Shown here piece after piece: positions 27,947-41,436 of a stretch of DNA of 64,000 bases. The notes below the pieces were generated by a model that was not told the DNA's origin, did not search any database, and was given only the letters and a program-made list of their open reading frames with translations. Position numbers and translations under genes: made by a program. Source of the DNA: Candidatus Peregrinibacteria bacterium (GTDB lineage Bacteria > Patescibacteriota > Gracilibacteria > UBA1369 > UM-FILTER-53-11); assembly GCA_016186205.1 (NCBI GenBank), contig JACPMA010000014.1:74409-138408 (forward strand), read 5' to 3'. How positions within the stretch are numbered: position 1 is the stretch's first letter; each line of letters starts with the position of its first letter.

Positions 27947-29431
27947 TTATATGGCTTCCGATAGTACCATCTTTTCTGTGAGAAATTCAACCGGCGATCG
28001 ATTATCCAGAGCGATTTCTCCGCTTGGATTATTGGCGATCAGTGTGATTCCGCGGAGAATTTTTGAAAGGAGCGATTGGAGTTCGAGTGAAAATTTATCG
28101 AGCGATACTGTGGAAAAATCCGGCGCGGCCTTAAACGCAAAAATAAGCGAATTATAAGAATTCTCTTCTCTTAATTCATACGTGAAAGGAAACACATCCG
28201 TTACAGTATTTTTAATAAGCGTTAAAAGTTCGGAATCGGTTGAAACAGAAGCAATGTTCATCATCATGCTGCCGTTTGGCTCGAGACGGGACTTCACAAG
28301 TTCGAAAAATTCCTTTGTGGCGAGATGGAACGGAATGTAGAGTTCATCGCGATATACATCAACCATTATAAAATCGTATTTTTCCTTTGTATTAGCCAAA
28401 AACATGCGGCCGTCGTTTTCATGAATTTGCATCGGAATTTCATCTGAATTAAAAAAACGCTTGCCGGTTTGAATCATGAGCGGATCGATTTCAACGCCGG
28501 CAAGTTCAAGCTGCGGATAAAAATGATGGAGAATGCGTGCGCTGGACGCTCCGGCGGTTCCGAGAATTAAAAATTTTTTGCCGTTTGGATTTATTGCCTG
28601 CAGAAATGCGGCTGCATCCCAATAATATCCGGTCAGATTTTTGCGCGGATGATACAGCGACTGCACGCCGACGCCTTCGTTTGTTAAAAGGGCGCGCGCG
28701 CCGGAATCATCCTCAAAAACGCGGATATAATTATAAACTGACTCGCCTTCATAAATAAGATCCGGATGCGCGTGTATGGATGATGGAATGAAAAAAAGCG
28801 CGATTGGAAGAATGAGCAAACCGAGTAGAATGGCTTTTCTTAAACCAAAAACACCAAGCATTATCAACATGCCGCCGAAAAGAAAAAATGTTTCGCGGGA
28901 ACCAAGGAAAGGAATGGTTACGAGAACCGGAAGAAACGTTCCGACGATGCTTCCGAGCGTGGAAAATGCATAAAGCGATCCGACTGTGGATCCGGCGCTG
29001 TCCATTTTTTTGAAACTCAAACGCGCTGCAAGCGGACTCACCATGCCGAGGAGAAAAAACGGAATAAGAAAAAGAACGAGCGTTGCGACGAGAGAACCAA
29101 GAAAAATCGAGAGGTTTTGGCGTTCTATGGCGCCGTACGCAAAAAGAAACACCGGCTTGCCTACAAAAGGAATAAGAGTAATAAAAACACCCGTTGCGAG
29201 AATAATCGGATAGAGAATTTTTTGCGCGGTTGCACCGTTATTTCGATCGGCAAGTTTTCCGCCGACAAAATATCCAAGCGCAAGCGCGGCCATAACGACA
29301 CCGATAATATTCGTCCAAACAAAAAGCGACGCGCCGAAGTACGGCGCAAGCAAACGGGATGCTGTTAACTCTACGGCCATAACGGCCATGCCTGTGATAA
29401 AAACGGTGAGGAATAGAAAAAATCGGCTCAT
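27947..29431 (-). CDS. fused polytopic membrane domain / spermidine-synthase-like aminopropyltransferase
   Basis: 494 aa. About 7 N-terminal TM helices, then the SAM-fold motif FLILGTAGASSARIL...LELAGVEIDP and DFIMVDVY. Confidence 0.8.
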   Translation of the reverse strand: MSRFFLFLTVFITGMAVMAVELTASRLLAPYFGASLFVWTNIIGVVMAALALGYFVGGKLADRNNGATAQKILYPIILATGVFITLIPFVGKPVFLFAYGAIERQNLSIFLGSLVATLVLFLIPFFLLGMVSPLAARLSFKKMDSAGSTVGSLYAFSTLGSIVGTFLPVLVTIPFLGSRETFFLFGGMLIMLGVFGLRKAILLGLLILPIALFFIPSSIHAHPDLIYEGESVYNYIRVFEDDSGARALLTNEGVGVQSLYHPRKNLTGYYWDAAAFLQAINPNGKKFLILGTAGASSARILHHFYPQLELAGVEIDPLMIQTGKRFFNSDEIPMQIHENDGRMFLANTKEKYDFIMVDVYRDELYIPFHLATKEFFELVKSRLEPNGSMMMNIASVSTDSELLTLIKNTVTDVFPFTYELREENSYNSLIFAFKAAPDFSTVSLDKFSLELQSLLSKILRGITLIANNPSGEIALDNRSPVEFLTEKMVLSEAI

Positions 29432-29741
29432 GGAATTGCTGCTTGGCCTATTGTAACATTCCTCATTCTTAGGCGTATATATTGGTGCTCAAAATTCGCA
29501 TTCTTCAGTCCCGGTTTTGAATTCCTCTATTGGGGGCAAAATCGGGATTTCGCAAATTGCAAATATATATATCAGCGAGTATCATCCACTCCTTTAGTGC
29601 GATCTTTTACAATGCCCAAATCGAGGCAACATTATGCAAAATGCCAGGGGCTAGTCGGCGCATTTTATATAATGTTGCTTCGAATGTATCTTCACGGAAC
29701 ACCTCAACCATTTGTTCCCGTGGAGGTCGGGGGCAACGTTT

Positions 29742-29759
29742 AGGAAAGAGAGATTTCAA
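29742..29759. repeat. 18-nt motif AGGAAAGAGAGATTTCAA (left inverted repeat of the GC-rich unit)
   Basis: The reverse complement of 30921-30937 is AGGAAAGAGAGATTCAA: 14 nt identical, a 1-nt indel, then CAA. Confidence 0.55.
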
Positions 29760-29794
29760 GTTCGCAAACCATTCGTACAGGAGGCTCGAGAAAC

Positions 29795-30853
29795 ATGAGA
29801 AAGGACTGGACCCAAAATCTGTGGCTCCTGGGAACGTGGCTGTTCCTGGCATACGTGGGGACGGGCGTCATGCCCAAAGTCTTCACGTACGGACTCGGCG
29901 GGGTCGACAAAGTCAGCCAGAACCAGTACGCGATCTTCAGCACGGCCGGCGGGATCATCGTCGGTCTGCTGATCGTCTTCGGACTGGGCTGGCTCCGCCA
30001 CTTCAAGCGGACGATCCCGTGGGAGGGCACGATGACGTGCGTGTCCGGCTTCAGCACGGCTGTTGTCATCGTGACGACGACCTTGATGTACACGTTCAAG
30101 GGCGTGTCGGTGATGGTGGCACAGGTGCTGATGCGGGGCAGCGTCATCATCTTGATGCTGGGTATCGACGGCATCATGATCTGGCGTGGGCTCAGCACGA
30201 CGAAGATCACGCGGACCCAGTACAAGGGCGTCGCCTTCGCGCTCGCGGCCATCGCGTTGGCGATCTTCGCTCCGGCTCGGCCGCTCAAGCCGGGACAGTA
30301 CGCAGCGACCTTCACGGAGATCCTGCCGACGTTGCTCGCGTACATCTTCCTGGGATACGCAATCCGCCTCTTCATCCAGCAGCTCTGGAAGCACAAGAAG
30401 GGAGAGGCGGCCCAGGACAACCGCGGTTTCTTCGCGGTTGAGCAGCTCTTCGCGGTGGCGACGCTCGTGGCGGTCGCGGTGTACATCTGCTTCTCGTCCT
30501 CGACGGCTCCGGGCCTCGTCGACGCGCAGCAGGCGTTCAAACACTGGAACGGGTGGGCGATGGTGAGCGGCATTTTCTTCGGTCTGGTGGCGGTGCCGAG
30601 CGTGTTCCTGATGATGCTCAAGGGACGCACGGGAACCTTCGGCGCGCTGCTGAACCGGGTGGTGACGCTGATCGCCGGAACAATCGCGACGTGCGCGCTC
30701 GCGATCGCCGTCGCCGGCCAGAACTGGCCGACGGTGTACGACTGGGTGTCGTTCGGACTGTTGCTGCTTGCCCTGCACTACGTGGGGAAGGCGGCGGCGG
30801 AGAAGAAGAAGGCGGCGGTGACCCTGGTGCGTCCGGCCGGCGCGACGGCCTAG
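29795..30853 (+). CDS. polytopic membrane protein (about 10 TM, 5+5; DMT/EamA-like by topology only) on compositionally foreign DNA
   Basis: 352 aa. AGGAGG at 29779-29784, 10 nt before the ATG. 24 of the first 30 codons end in G/C. Hydrophobic spans run throughout the sequence. This is the only frame in the region that gives a sensible protein. Confidence 0.75.
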   Translation: MRKDWTQNLWLLGTWLFLAYVGTGVMPKVFTYGLGGVDKVSQNQYAIFSTAGGIIVGLLIVFGLGWLRHFKRTIPWEGTMTCVSGFSTAVVIVTTTLMYTFKGVSVMVAQVLMRGSVIILMLGIDGIMIWRGLSTTKITRTQYKGVAFALAAIALAIFAPARPLKPGQYAATFTEILPTLLAYIFLGYAIRLFIQQLWKHKKGEAAQDNRGFFAVEQLFAVATLVAVAVYICFSSSTAPGLVDAQQAFKHWNGWAMVSGIFFGLVAVPSVFLMMLKGRTGTFGALLNRVVTLIAGTIATCALAIAVAGQNWPTVYDWVSFGLLLLALHYVGKAAAEKKKAAVTLVRPAGATA

Positions 30854-30863
30854 GGATGCGAAT

Positions 30864-30905
30864 CTTCGGGCGGTCGGTGGGGGAAACTCTGCCGACCGTC
30901 CGAAG
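30864..30905 (+). terminator. GC-rich hairpin after the foreign gene
   Basis: CTTCGGGCGGTCGG (30864-30877) pairs with CCGACCGTCCGAAG (30892-30905) around a ~13-nt loop. It starts 11 nt after the TAG. No T-run follows. Confidence 0.45.
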
Positions 30906-30920
30906 ACCGTATGAAATGCA

Positions 30921-31024
30921 TTGAATCTCTCTTTCCTTGTTCTATTTTTAAGCTCAGCTTCGCTCAAAAACTGGCAGAGCCAGATCTTTTCGCTCGCTTC
31001 GCGCTCGGCCCGTGGCCTCGCAGC
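30921..31024. repeat. ~104-bp element, left copy of the inverted pair flanking fbp/fba
   Basis: The reverse complement aligns with 33014-33115. The first 27 nt (GCTGCGAGGCCACGGGCCGAGCGCGAA) are identical, and there are about 8 differences over the inner ~80 nt by hand alignment. It ends 5 nt from the fbp stop. Confidence 0.8.
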
Positions 31025-31029
31025 GCGGA

Positions 31030-31935
31030 TCAAGACAGATAATTTTCAATTTGTTCCACCGTTTTCTTCGACCCGATATAAATCGGAGTTCTTTGATGTA
31101 GTTCGGTTATTTTTTTTGCAAGGATGCGGGTTTTGCCGTCGCTGGATGCGCCTCCGGCTTGCTCCATTAAAAGCGCCATGGGATTGCATTCAAAAAGCAA
31201 TCGCAATTTGCCGTCCGGAGCCTTGGAATAACCCGGATACGTAAAAATTCCATTCCCTTTTAGAAAAATATGATTTAAATCCGGCACCATGCCACCGGAA
31301 TATCGCAGTGTTAAGCCATTTTTTATCCATTCATTCACAAGCTTTAAATAATCCTCGCGCTCGGCGGCCGCGCGTAAATTTCCCGGCGCAAAATGTTTTG
31401 AATCCTCGGCAACGCGGAGATTTTCGCGCGTGAGATAAAATTCCTCATTATCCGCAAGTCTAAATTCATGCGTGCCTTTTTTTGTAGTTATAACAAGCGT
31501 CGTGTGCGGGCCATATACAGCAAACGCTGCGGCAACTTGATCATCACCGGTTTTCCCAATTGGATTGCCGCCAGGATACACGCCAAAAATCGAACCGACC
31601 GCAAAATTAACATCAACTAACGAAGAGCCATCCAGCGGATCAAAAACAACGGTGAATTGCCCCGAAGATTTCACTGCCACCGCTTCTTCCAGCTCTTCCG
31701 ACGCAAGCCGCTCAACAAGGCCGGACTTTTTCAATTCATCAACGACAATTTCATTCGCTTGCACATCCAGCGCAAGCTGCTTTTCGCCGTAGACATTTTC
31801 ACTCCCTGCTAATTCTCCGCCCTGTTTTCCAATCGCATCACTAATTTTTACAACAGTGCGAGGAATTATCTCTCCCATGAGCCGCGCAAGATTTGCTTCG
31901 CAGCCGGATTTCTGCAAAAATTCGAGCAGTTTCAT
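31030..31935 (-). CDS. fbp: fructose-1,6-bisphosphatase class 1
   Basis: 301 aa. FDPLDGSS metal site, and YSGGMVPD...GKLRLLFECNPMALLMEQAGGASSDG. Confidence 0.8.
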   Translation of the reverse strand: MKLLEFLQKSGCEANLARLMGEIIPRTVVKISDAIGKQGGELAGSENVYGEKQLALDVQANEIVVDELKKSGLVERLASEELEEAVAVKSSGQFTVVFDPLDGSSLVDVNFAVGSIFGVYPGGNPIGKTGDDQVAAAFAVYGPHTTLVITTKKGTHEFRLADNEEFYLTRENLRVAEDSKHFAPGNLRAAAEREDYLKLVNEWIKNGLTLRYSGGMVPDLNHIFLKGNGIFTYPGYSKAPDGKLRLLFECNPMALLMEQAGGASSDGKTRILAKKITELHQRTPIYIGSKKTVEQIENYLS

Positions 31936-33013: not shown

Positions 33014-33115
33014 GCTGCGAGGCCACGGGCCGAGCGCGAAACGAGCGAAGAATCTGGCTTTGCCAGTTCTTAGCGAAGTTGAGCTTATAAATAAAGAAAG
33101 GGAGAGAATCTTGAA
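33014..33115. repeat. ~102-bp element, right copy of the inverted pair flanking fbp/fba
   Basis: It starts 14 nt after the fba TAA. It contains the hairpin AAGAA-T-CTGGC-TTT-GCCAG-TTCTT; the partner copy keeps an equivalent hairpin with changed A/T-rich pairs. Confidence 0.8.
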
Positions 33116-33225
33116 GGCGGGAAGCGATAGAACTTGATTATGGACGTAATGCCGATAATCGGGTAGCTATGCTTTTGGTCCCAATCCTTTCAAAAATCTC
33201 TTAACCCTTTCAATAAGGAGATACG

Positions 33226-37989: not shown

Positions 37990-39300
37990 ATGGGTGCAGA
38001 AACACAGCGCGAGGAAAATGTTGGCCTAAATGGAATTGCCGGAACAGTCGGAATAAATGCCGCAGTGGAATATATGCTCGCGAATGACGATCCGGATTTA
38101 CATTTAACGAGAGGAAATGATCTTGTCTTTAAAAGAAATGGGCCTGAAGGAGGCGTTGATGAAGATATTGTAAGGGATTTTGCCCGTTATCTTGCAGAAT
38201 TCGGCAATCAAGGAAGACGACTTTTAGATGAACCGATTCGAACGAGTGCACGCCGTATGGCGGTGGTGAGAGCTATTGAAGCACATCGAAATAGACTTCG
38301 CTTTGTAGTAGATAATTATGTTACACATCCAGATAATGGAAGATACTTAGTCGATCCTCTCCATGAAGTACGTGATGACACTATAGAACTGGATGCAATA
38401 AAGGATCCGCAAGAAATTCCATGGAGCGATGGCGAACATCCAGCTGGACATGTTGTTGATGCAACTACACAAATAGTCACAGCAGATGATATTCGTAAAC
38501 ATCTTCGCGGAAGAGTAACGCAAGCGGTAAAAACAGCGCCGGCAAAAGGTGGTGGTTTTGATTTTCTCTGGGTGGCCGGTGTAACTGATGATGGCTTTCG
38601 GCCTGCTGAACATAGAGCGATAGCCGAGGGGGCTTGCACCCTGCAGTGTTTTGGTGCAGTTATGGATCCTCTTTTCGGAGTAAAAAATTTGAGGCCGCAG
38701 CGCATAGAATTCTCAACAATTCACGGAGTTACTGGCGATCAAAAGCTTGTCCGCGGTTTCCGGCCGGAAGATATGCCGCGCGGACTTCCAGGCGATGAAG
38801 ATTTTATCCGGACGAAATCCGGAAGCGCCGGTGATCTTACGCAACTTGTACGATTTCTTGCACTGCGCCACGGAACATTTGCGAGGTATAAAGCACAAGA
38901 AGATCTCATTGCTGAGCTTGTCGAAAAAACGCGGCTCACTTCTGCGACCCGCGTGCCTCCGAAAGATTCCGCAACGCTCGATTTTCGAGTAGAAGCAGAC
39001 GGCGATTTTACGCAAGATGATATTTTAGAAGCATATCGAATTTTTGGCAGAGAACATCCTGAAGTGCTTCGCGTTGAAGAAAATCCTGTGGCAATTGCAA
39101 GTTCTACTATTCGTGGACGCCGCGAATCAGGCATTATGTTCCTAGATACTTTAGAAGTTGAAGATGGTCACATTATCCGCGGAACCGCCGGTTATGCCCA
39201 TGAAGACAACAGCCCACATGCAAGCATGCGCATTTCAAAAATGATTGCGGAAAGAAAACGCATGAAGCCTGCTATAACAGGAGCAGGCGTGGCTGGATAA
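37990..39300 (+). CDS. highly divergent GAPDH-fold paralog (unknown specificity)
   Basis: 436 aa. It aligns by eye to the adjacent gap product in five places. GLNGIAGTVG corresponds to INGFGRIGR. KDPQEIPW..KTAPAK corresponds to KDPSELPW..ITAPAK. EGACTLQC corresponds to ASCTTNC. STIHGVTGDQKLV corresponds to TTIHSYTNDQKIL. GYAHEDNSPHASMRI corresponds to SWYDNEWGYSMRTI. Confidence 0.7.
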   Translation: MGAETQREENVGLNGIAGTVGINAAVEYMLANDDPDLHLTRGNDLVFKRNGPEGGVDEDIVRDFARYLAEFGNQGRRLLDEPIRTSARRMAVVRAIEAHRNRLRFVVDNYVTHPDNGRYLVDPLHEVRDDTIELDAIKDPQEIPWSDGEHPAGHVVDATTQIVTADDIRKHLRGRVTQAVKTAPAKGGGFDFLWVAGVTDDGFRPAEHRAIAEGACTLQCFGAVMDPLFGVKNLRPQRIEFSTIHGVTGDQKLVRGFRPEDMPRGLPGDEDFIRTKSGSAGDLTQLVRFLALRHGTFARYKAQEDLIAELVEKTRLTSATRVPPKDSATLDFRVEADGDFTQDDILEAYRIFGREHPEVLRVEENPVAIASSTIRGRRESGIMFLDTLEVEDGHIIRGTAGYAHEDNSPHASMRISKMIAERKRMKPAITGAGVAG

Positions 39301-40716: not shown

Positions 40717-41436
40717 ATGGGTCTACCAGAAGATGGTGCTGAAGCGACTGAACCCACACCAGCTATTGCCGCAGCTCCAAGTACAACCACCGGTACTCCA
40801 CCTAAACCTGAAGCAACGGAAGTAGTTCCGGAAATGAGTTTGACAGTAGCAGGCGCATGCAACAATCCTCACGGAAATTACGTCGGCTTAAACAAAGGCC
40901 AACGCGATAAGTTACAAGTTGAAATTGGATCAAGTGTAGAACTTATGGATGGTGCCGGACAAAGCCTCGGTATTTTTACTGTCGGCACAGGATCAAAAAA
41001 CCTTTTACTTGAATCAGAAAAATTTACGGCCAATGGAGTTGGCGTTGGCGCTACGGTGACCGTAAAAAGGGCTGTAAAAAAATCTGAACGAGAAATTAAT
41101 TTGTCTGCTTCCTACGGAATTGAAGCAGCAGAACAGCATGAACGACGCGCTGGGATTATTAGAAATCGCTTCCCGGATATGGATCCGGAAGACTATATTA
41201 CTGTGCCAACGGCACTTGGAAGAGAACTTGGTTTTTCGCCAAATCCGGCGGCAAAAGCAACAGTTCTCTCTATTAGTAAAGGAAGAGTGCGAATCGGCGG
41301 CATTGATCATGAAATCGTCATGGTACCTTCTGGCAGTACAATTGGCTTCACGACCAAAGCAGCGCAAAGACTTGGCATACCTAAAGAACTTGGAACTATT
41401 AAGGTACGAATTGATAACGGAGTGTTAGTGATCTGA
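40717..41436 (+). CDS. stand-alone tandem beta-barrel protein resembling the Cdc48/VAT N-domain or AbrB-like fold
   Basis: 239 aa. A/P/T-rich N-terminus, then LTVAGACNNPHGNYVGLNKGQRDKLQVEIGSSVELMDGAGQSLGIFTV...ANGVGVGATVTVKRA. This pattern resembles VAT-N (LRVAEA..G..RLDP..M..LGV..GD.VEI.G...NAGVSIGDKVTVRKA). A second related half follows. Confidence 0.6.
   Translation: MGLPEDGAEATEPTPAIAAAPSTTTGTPPKPEATEVVPEMSLTVAGACNNPHGNYVGLNKGQRDKLQVEIGSSVELMDGAGQSLGIFTVGTGSKNLLLESEKFTANGVGVGATVTVKRAVKKSEREINLSASYGIEAAEQHERRAGIIRNRFPDMDPEDYITVPTALGRELGFSPNPAAKATVLSISKGRVRIGGIDHEIVMVPSGSTIGFTTKAAQRLGIPKELGTIKVRIDNGVLVI

Follow-up and report, generated by a model that had tools for sequence, protein, structure and literature searches.

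A likely horizontally acquired, GC-rich DMT-fold transporter gene established at a conserved locus in Patescibacteria

Contig JACPMA010000014.1 of a Candidatus Peregrinibacteria bacterium (assembly GCA_016186205.1) was analyzed from position 74,409 to position 138,408. In this 64-kb stretch (the window; coordinates below refer to it), the open reading frame (ORF) at positions 29795 to 30853 of the plus strand differs sharply in composition from its surroundings. The ORF encodes a 352-amino-acid (aa) transporter of the DMT fold with 10 transmembrane (TM) helices, as judged from the ORF, an AlphaFold2 model, and Foldseek matches; the protein belongs to a widespread family that lacks both a name and a Pfam model. 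The block formed by this gene and its flanking elements is likely a horizontally acquired gene that is now an established, regulated part of its host genome. An earlier note, made from the letters of the window, had described the same block as a very recent acquisition, possibly made through short inverted repeats at its ends. As that note had proposed, the host has a small genome of lower GC content; the nearest named homologs of the adjacent FBPase (73 to 75% identical) come from Candidatus Peregrinibacteria, Candidatus Gracilibacteria, and the "Patescibacteria group" and place the host within the Patescibacteria.

The GC content of the transporter ORF is 63.8%, while the other 1059-bp segments of the window average 44.9% (standard deviation, 2.6%; maximum, 51.1%; z = 7.3). 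Relative to 39 other window ORFs, the outlier is the third codon position (GC3, 0.901; host, 0.435 ± 0.045; z = 10.4), whereas the first and second positions (GC1, z = 0.4; GC2, z = 2.0) are not outliers. None of these 39 ORFs displays a comparable GC3 bias. In a 100-bp profile, GC content rises at the ATG and drops just after a hairpin at 30864 to 30905. The hand counts given in the earlier note were exact, both for G+C (40/60, 19/60, and 32/60) and for G/C-ending codons at the start of the ORF (24/30). Five shadow ORFs of more than 100 aa indeed overlap the gene in other frames.

Upstream of the gene lies a series of plus-strand elements shared by all the orthologs. A consensus scan retrieved a promoter-like TTGCAA-17-TATCAT at 29557 to 29585, a putative promoter whose hexamers are both kept in three orthologous loci (L004, L091, and L094; alignment A5). 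RNAalifold predicted two hairpins in the 5′ untranslated region (UTR). The first, P1 (29620 to 29684), has a long stem (GGCAAC.../...GTTGCC) and a variable tip; several of its pairs are kept through changes on both sides among six orthologs, and it is missing in L095, a related locus without the gene. The second, P2 (29688 to 29727), has a consensus structure with a few compensatory pairs. Next follows GGGGGCAACG with a short T run (the GGGCAACG-TTT segment, 29729 to 29741), conserved in all orthologs; its sequence would permit an alternative structure in which it pairs with the 3′ arm of P1. The purine-rich arm of the inverted repeat, IR-L (AGGAAAGAGAGATTTCAA, 29742 to 29759), also lies in the predicted 5′ UTR and leads into a near-invariant box, AAGTTCGCAAACCATTC (29758 to 29774; alignment A5). 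The CCAUUC of this box could pair with the Shine-Dalgarno sequence, AGGAGG, which is found at 29779 to 29784 as first reported, 10 nt before the ATG, and of which GGAGG is invariant in eight orthologs. RNAalifold pairs the box with GGAGG; these pairs never vary and thus carry no covariation information. Across the leader fold as a whole, double changes retain 10/46 predicted pairs (six sequences). Comparison of the leader and the 3′ region with Rfam gave nothing credible (no match at E ≤ 5). The stretch from 29432 to 29555, conserved in L004, was considered as a further part of the leader and rejected, as a piece of it also adjoins sigma70 in the gene-less L095; it belongs to the divergent sigma operon.

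Downstream of the stop codon, the hairpin at 30864 to 30905 (plus strand), also present at the position first reported, is a GC-rich stem-loop with a GAAA loop. Of its 17 consensus pairs, 5 show compensatory double changes, its G.U wobbles pair on the sense strand only, and two sequence types occur among the orthologs; the stem-loop is an RNA element. It does not have the form of a Rho-independent terminator, being followed by ACCGTATGAAATG with no U tract, and a terminator scan found a canonical bidirectional terminator only at 30971 to 30983, 65 nt beyond the stem-loop. The stem-loop may either terminate transcription or stabilize the mRNA. The pyrimidine-rich arm, IR-R (TTGAATCTCTCTTTCCT, 30921 to 30937, plus strand), lies in the predicted 3′ UTR. 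Because the canonical terminator lies past IR-R, both arms fall inside the predicted mRNA. Transcription from the gene's own promoter would yield an mRNA whose ~200-nt 5′ UTR includes both conserved hairpins as well as a strong Shine-Dalgarno sequence and whose end is predicted beyond the sense-strand 3′ stem-loop.

The AlphaFold2 model of the protein (pLDDT, 79.6; pTM, 0.79) contains 10 TM helices in a 5+5 arrangement (residues 9-31, 42-63, 77-100, 106-130, 140-158, 173-207, 210-233, ~253-274, 282-305, and 314-344). In a Foldseek search against the PDB, the top 29 matches were all DMT proteins (E down to 6.6e-6), with TM-scores of 0.5 to 0.69 and identities of 12 to 15%; for 5y78, 9i20, 9s36, 5oge, 6ukj, and 7paf, the probability is 1.0 and the TM-scores are 0.5 to 0.66 over ~330 aligned columns. 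The DMT-like topology suggested in the earlier note is thereby supported at the level of the fold. Sequence searches of the window protein against Pfam, NCBIfam, and the PDB gave zero matches; one distant family member has a sub-threshold match to EamA (6e-4), and a different member has one to DUF6976. Family-level homology to SLC35/TPT is not supported at such identity, and a TPT Pfam match is absent. As a sequence-level search for an internal duplication of the 5-TM halves, comparison of the N-terminal and C-terminal halves of alignment A1 by hhalign gave P values of 0.006 (global) and 0.047 (local), with a probability of <3%.

A word-indexed search retrieved 15 relatives of the protein, while an exhaustive profile search retrieved 602 clusters at 50% identity. 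In a scan of named genomes, 416 loci were found, chiefly in Ignavibacteria, Myxococcota, Marinimicrobia, Eisenbacteria, Bacteroidota, and Gemmatimonadota. The window protein carries the conserved motifs MRGS, DNRGFFAVEQ, and LNR, with invariant charged residues within helices (R114, D125, R191, E216, and R288). With a dN/dS of 0.08 to 0.40, the transporter gene is under purifying selection. In many family members of ~500 aa (P0081, P0086, P0118, P0121, P0132, and others), the 10-TM module is followed by a C-terminal LMWPc domain, and one member is fused to a PhnD-like phosphonate/phosphite-binding domain. These fusions weakly suggest that the substrate is anionic (an oxyanion or a phospho-compound). 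By analogy with structurally solved carriers of this fold, the protein is most likely an alternating-access exchanger or carrier of a small polar or anionic solute. In 80 native loci, genes for bestrophin-like, MFS, HAD, nitroreductase, and TPMT proteins are enriched among the neighbors.

Seven further orthologs with 73 to 85% aa identity were found, making eight with the window copy; a metagenome scan for more close orthologs added one marginal match and no others. All eight have a GC3 of 0.87 to 0.90 and lie on flanks of 41 to 53% GC. Four of the orthologs are on contigs too short to show neighbors. Where neighbors are visible, the gene lies downstream of an operon for an ECF sigma70 factor and a FecR-DUF5667 protein (L004) and is convergent with the FBPase gene (L004, L007, and L008). 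The related locus L095 is syntenic (S11 peptidase, MraY, FecR, sigma70 ... FBPase), and its interval contains no trace of the transporter gene or of any of its cis-elements; presence among related genomes is thus patchy. The sequence of L096, a second candidate empty site, ends 91 nt past FBPase, just short of the expected position of IR-R. The flanking proteins are about as diverged as the transporter (FBPase, 72 to 84% identical; sigma70, 81%; FecR, 66%). At 4-fold degenerate sites, the flanking genes are 25 to 53% identical, which is near or at saturation, versus 72 to 76% for the transporter gene. Correspondingly, the synonymous divergence (dS) by the NG86 method is 1.1 to 1.6 for FBPase (not computable for sigma70 and FecR) and 0.32 to 0.44 for the transporter, or 0.8 to 1.1 for the transporter by the codon-bias-corrected YN00 method. 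The earlier note had called the acquisition very recent and had itself named orthologous loci with the same gene and composition as evidence to the contrary. Four diverged relatives do carry the gene beside the same neighbors with the same composition, and the claim of a very recent arrival is not supported.

The claim of a foreign origin from a high-GC donor is supported. In native lineages of the family, the GC content of the gene follows that of the genome (~37% in Ignavibacteria, ~65% in Myxococcota), and GC1 and GC2 climb with GC3. The window gene (GC1/GC2/GC3, 0.564/0.450/0.901) falls on this trend, close to members from genomes of ~66% GC (GC1/GC2, 0.550/0.440) and far from low-GC members (0.427/0.376). 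Regression across the family points to a donor of 66 to 69% GC. All three codon positions are thus on the high-GC trend, and synonymous change among the orthologs has run mostly from GC to AT. Given this composition together with the patchy distribution, we infer a foreign transfer. Both the coding sequence and the GC-rich 3′ stem-loop would have passed from a donor of ~66 to 69% GC into an ancestor of a Peregrinibacteria-like group of Patescibacteria (~45% GC), and the acquired gene would have become fixed between the ECF sigma/anti-sigma operon and the FBPase gene.

The direction of synonymous change was counted at 170 synonymous sites at which the amino acid is invariant across the eight orthologs, with minority states scored. 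Changes from G/C to A/T (n = 48) greatly outnumber changes from A/T to G/C (n = 3), with 23 further changes between G and C; because of this imbalance, the transporter gene is read as losing G/C and as being off equilibrium. The majority-rule GC3 is 0.945, and the ancestor would have had a GC3 of 0.945 or more, versus 0.87 to 0.90 today. The gene would therewith be slowly shedding G/C at synonymous sites. The transporter alleles are also recombination mosaics. In a max-chi-square permutation test, 63/168 triplets gave p ≤ 0.005, and nearest neighbors switch along the gene: the L091 allele most resembles L008 in its 5′ part, the window copy in its middle, and L004 (94%) in its 3′ part. The transporter tree conflicts with the FBPase tree, the distribution of 3′-hairpin types conflicts with the protein tree, and 4-fold degenerate sites of FBPase are less diverged in the half nearest the transporter gene (0.52 to 0.60 identical) than in the far half (0.34 to 0.43). 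Homologous recombination thus probably shuffles the alleles among related lineages. On the simplest reading, such recombination keeps the alleles younger than the genomic background; it is the most likely reason why synonymous divergence of the transporter lags behind that of its neighbors.

Several observations weigh against an established, acquired gene or against parts of that interpretation. Had the gene already been in place when the host lineages diverged, the flanks' dS would predict a GC3 of ~0.67, while 0.87 to 0.90 is observed; either the gene must have spread later within the clade or its synonymous sites must be under selection, two possibilities that these data distinguish only in part. 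The YN00 value narrows the gap between predicted and observed GC3. A neighbor-joining tree places the eight orthologs on a long branch of their own, sister to all other members, and nesting within a donor clade is not seen. Searches across 5.8 billion proteins yielded no donor lineage, and a donor cannot be named because the closest outside relative is just 39% identical. With respect to regulation, the ends of the transcript are predicted only, and the 11-bp core of the inverted repeat never varies, such that pairing between its arms is not demonstrated by covariation. With respect to the substrate, the LMWPc fusions score about equally as ArsC and as low-molecular-weight (LMW) protein-tyrosine phosphatase, and the 80 native loci share no consistent operon; gene neighborhood was thus not used to name a substrate.

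The inverted repeat itself is real: the perfect 14-mer AGGAAAGAGAGATT occurs at 29742 to 29755 on the plus strand and at 30924 to 30937 on the minus strand. Within the 64 kb, it occurs only at these two arms. The core of IR-L, GAAAGAGAG[A/G]T, is kept in 8/8 orthologs, and the core of IR-R, ATCTCTCTTTC, is invariant in the 7/7 orthologs sequenced that far. Across 96 fetched loci, the exact 11-mer GAAAGAGAGAT is found in this clade only, always with one plus-strand copy 5′ of the gene and one minus-strand copy 3′ of it. At their edges, the two arms differ in concert between two groups of orthologs (AGG...GATT versus GAAAG...GATGA), and the best duplex between the 5′ and 3′ UTRs centers on the repeat core in every ortholog (z, −1.8 to −3.7). 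Both arms are kept in all orthologs whose sequence spans them and are therefore probably functional, as UTR or operator-type elements. They would represent conserved cis-elements in the predicted 5′ and 3′ UTRs that most likely either form a duplex with one another in the mRNA or serve as sites for one shared factor, rather than relics of an insertion.

Other explanations of the composition were weighed against these data. Sharp compositional edges, as seen here, may also arise when an assembly is chimeric or when a contaminant from a high-GC organism is binned with the host, a concern that the earlier note had raised. This explanation is almost certainly wrong, as independent assemblies from other samples or runs (L001 and L002) are identical over positions 29400 to 31300 (1.9 kb), both junctions included, and the ortholog lies on low-GC flanks with the same cis-elements in seven further assemblies. 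The junctions are thus genuine. A different proposal, which we regard as very improbable, is that the gene is native or long resident and that its extreme GC3 is held by selection on synonymous sites, through either mRNA structure or the speed of membrane protein translation. Such selection would account for a GC3 that stays at 0.87 to 0.90 in all eight lineages despite saturated flanks, for 4-fold sites far more alike than those of the flanks, and for the failure to find a donor. It does not account for a 48:3 ratio of changes, which is far from compositional equilibrium, or for GC1 and GC2 values that likewise match those of high-GC family members. Moreover, the noncoding 3′ hairpin is also GC rich, none of the 39 other window ORFs is so biased, and the syntenic relative L095 lacks the gene.

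The repeat arms invite readings of their own. The 1.2-kb unit that they bound may be a nonautonomous mobile cassette, either a miniature inverted-repeat transposable element (MITE) or a mobile insertion cassette, which entered very recently via its repeat ends with the enzyme encoded elsewhere. The perfect 14-nt repeat is of the kind expected at the termini of such elements and tightly flanks the GC-rich block, the arms are conserved and co-change at their edges as would sites for one enzyme, and the lower synonymous divergence and mosaic alleles fit a spread after the hosts diverged; the interval between sigma70 and FBPase also varies between relatives. We nonetheless consider this reading improbable. 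The gene occupies the same locus in each relative with visible flanks, the motif is found nowhere else in the 64 kb or the 96 loci, and no transposase or integrase is encoded among the window ORFs scanned, in agreement with the earlier note, which had seen no recombinase. Entry through the repeat ends, as that note had suggested, is further disfavored by the lack of a target-site duplication (...ACGTTT before IR-L, TGTTCT... after IR-R; none in L007 or L008), by conserved gene-specific leader hairpins that lie outside IR-L and are missing in the gene-less L095, by a GC step at the ATG instead of at IR-L, and by the continuation of IR-R into a host repeat module also found after the aldolase gene. 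It is a long shot, in our estimate, that leader, gene, and hairpin form a new kind of exchangeable Patescibacteria cassette whose repeats are sites for a recombinase or for an uptake and recombination system. Such a system, encoded elsewhere, would then carry the unit from one related genome to another, into a single preferred locus. If true, this would account both for a synonymous divergence that is low compared with the flanks and for the persistence of the donor composition. Alternatively, the arms may be a pair of DNA-level binding sites for one regulator, i.e., an operator pair or a loop that silences the foreign gene. Strict invariance of the 11-bp core next to a freely covarying 3′ hairpin fits sequence recognition better than pairing, and a related purine-rich tip is found after the aldolase-side repeat without an evident pairing partner. 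However, both arms lie within the predicted transcript, no regulator gene is linked to the cassette, and the only substitution in the core, an A-to-G change in the 5′ arm of L092, keeps an RNA pair (G.U) but breaks the DNA symmetry. DNA-level sites are thus unlikely, although less so than mobility, and RNA pairing between the arms is somewhat more likely than a DNA-level function.

Between IR-R and the FBPase stop codon lies one copy of an 82-nt repeat (30943 to 31024), which includes the bidirectional terminator-like hairpin given by the terminator scan at 30971 to 30983. By blastn self-match, a second, inverted copy (33014 to 33093) was found downstream of the aldolase gene, followed by a purine-rich tip at 33095 to 33115 (33014 to 33115 in total). 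The two copies are 90% identical over 82 nt (E = 4.5e-19), and the aldolase-side module is also present after the aldolase gene in L096. The earlier note had described the tip as a third, diverged copy of the inverted repeat. As a copy, it fails a test allowing up to three mismatches; as a relative, it stands, being the tip of an inverted repeat whose other copy abuts IR-R. A chance resemblance was also considered for this tip and withdrawn, since it belongs to the 82-nt repeat. The tip is probably a relative of the repeat arms, albeit one that forms part of a host module, and its motif appears to be a host sequence that accompanies terminator modules. The 82-nt repeats bracket the divergent FBPase and aldolase genes, the start codons of which are 20 nt apart. 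Each copy contains a GC-rich 26-mer and a CTGGC...GCCAG terminator hairpin. The modules are 90% identical though synonymous sites are saturated between relatives. The noncoding stretch from the aldolase gene to the next minus-strand gene (33095 to 33225) is conserved in L096 (~660 to 800) and contains a hairpin with a conserved loop, GGACGTAATGCC, and a compensatory stem (GATTAT/ATAATC in the window versus GGAGG/CCTCC in L096). It gave no match in Rfam at E ≤ 1 and is a possible small RNA or part of a 3′ UTR.

Elsewhere, the window contains housekeeping genes (class II RNR, DnaK, GAPDH, lysine-pathway, and cell-wall genes), and TGA serves as a stop codon in the host, as read from the stop of FBPase. 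The interval between sigma70 and FBPase is a variable spot (27947 to 29431 in the window, 4928 to 5344 in L004, and 1644 to 3823 in L095). In the window it holds an additional gene, which encodes a membrane protein of 494 aa containing a spermidine-synthase domain, overlaps the sigma70 gene, and is absent from L004; in L095, four small ORFs occupy the interval, one of them encoding a HicB-like antitoxin. A YafQ/ParE-type toxin-antitoxin pair lies beside FBPase in L008 (2137 to 2662) and L096 (2001 to 2532), where the window has the aldolase gene directly, which is a sign of further local rearrangement around the locus. In L007, ~235 nt of extra AT-rich sequence (1292 to 1527), absent from other orthologous loci, separates IR-R from the FBPase stop, and FBPase is longer (336 aa). 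A literature search on DUF5667 gave no papers. Among the 27 ORFs of alignment A11, one in the window encodes a ComEC-type "Competence" domain (PF03772, E = 1.6e-51), which is compatible with DNA uptake and recombination among relatives. Two window ORFs (37990 to 39300 and 40717 to 41436) display the reversed codon-position pattern (GC3, 0.30 to 0.31; GC1, 0.58 to 0.65) and a high Gly/Ala/Arg/Pro content (0.33 to 0.34); the former shows a weak match to the GAPDH C-terminal domain and nothing else.

If the gene is indeed an established acquisition, the locus offers a clean, quantifiable case of a foreign gene turned stable and regulated in the reduced genomes of Patescibacteria, and transport is the type of function on which such metabolically dependent organisms are thought to rely. 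A striking GC island need not be recent: the donor signature outlasts synonymous saturation of the neighboring genes, apparently aided by recombination. The conserved structured leader and the pair of UTR motifs constitute testable candidates for regulatory RNA elements. In addition, the ~600 clusters at 50% identity represent a DMT branch without annotation, and the fusions to ArsC/LMW-phosphatase and PhnD-like domains point to a testable class of substrates.

With regard to known systems, the window protein shares 10 TM helices in a 5+5 arrangement with solved DMT carriers (the triose-phosphate/phosphate translocator 5y78, SLC35B1 [9i20], the nucleotide-sugar transporters Vrg4 and CST [5oge, 9s36, and 6i1r], PfCRT, and LicB). 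It differs in its low identity to these proteins (just 12 to 15%) and in having conserved motifs of its own. ACR3-ArsC fusions combine an arsenite carrier with an arsenate reductase of the LMW-phosphatase type. The LMWPc fusions of family members parallel this carrier-reductase architecture; however, their membrane module is DMT-fold rather than ACR3/BART, and the window protein has no fusion. I-shaped intrinsic terminators without a U tract are described in high-GC Actinobacteria. Like these and like 3′ stabilizer stem-loops, the window gene has a GC-rich stem of 17 to 19 bp directly after the stop codon, with compensatory changes; unlike them, it has a separate canonical bidirectional terminator 65 nt further on.

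In its single passenger gene, 3′ palindrome, and short inverted repeats, the unit resembles MITEs and mobile insertion and integron cassettes. It differs from MITEs and mobile insertion cassettes in its fixed locus and in lacking a target-site duplication, other copies, and a transposase, and from integron cassettes in that GTTRRRY attC core sites are absent at its boundaries and no integrase is seen in the window. Another parallel is amelioration, the concept of Lawrence and Ochman for compositionally atypical acquired genes. Gene exchange within the Patescibacteria is treated in one report (PMC12455944). As in both of these settings, a lone foreign gene is donor-like at all codon positions, patchy among relatives, and drifting from GC to AT. 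In contrast, no mobility genes or tRNA are adjacent to the window gene, and the island is old and clade-wide, with neighbors that are synonymously saturated, yet has lost only ~5 points of GC3. The case is thus a further example of a known phenomenon, that of a foreign gene undergoing amelioration, in which the persistence of the donor signature across a whole clade is noteworthy.

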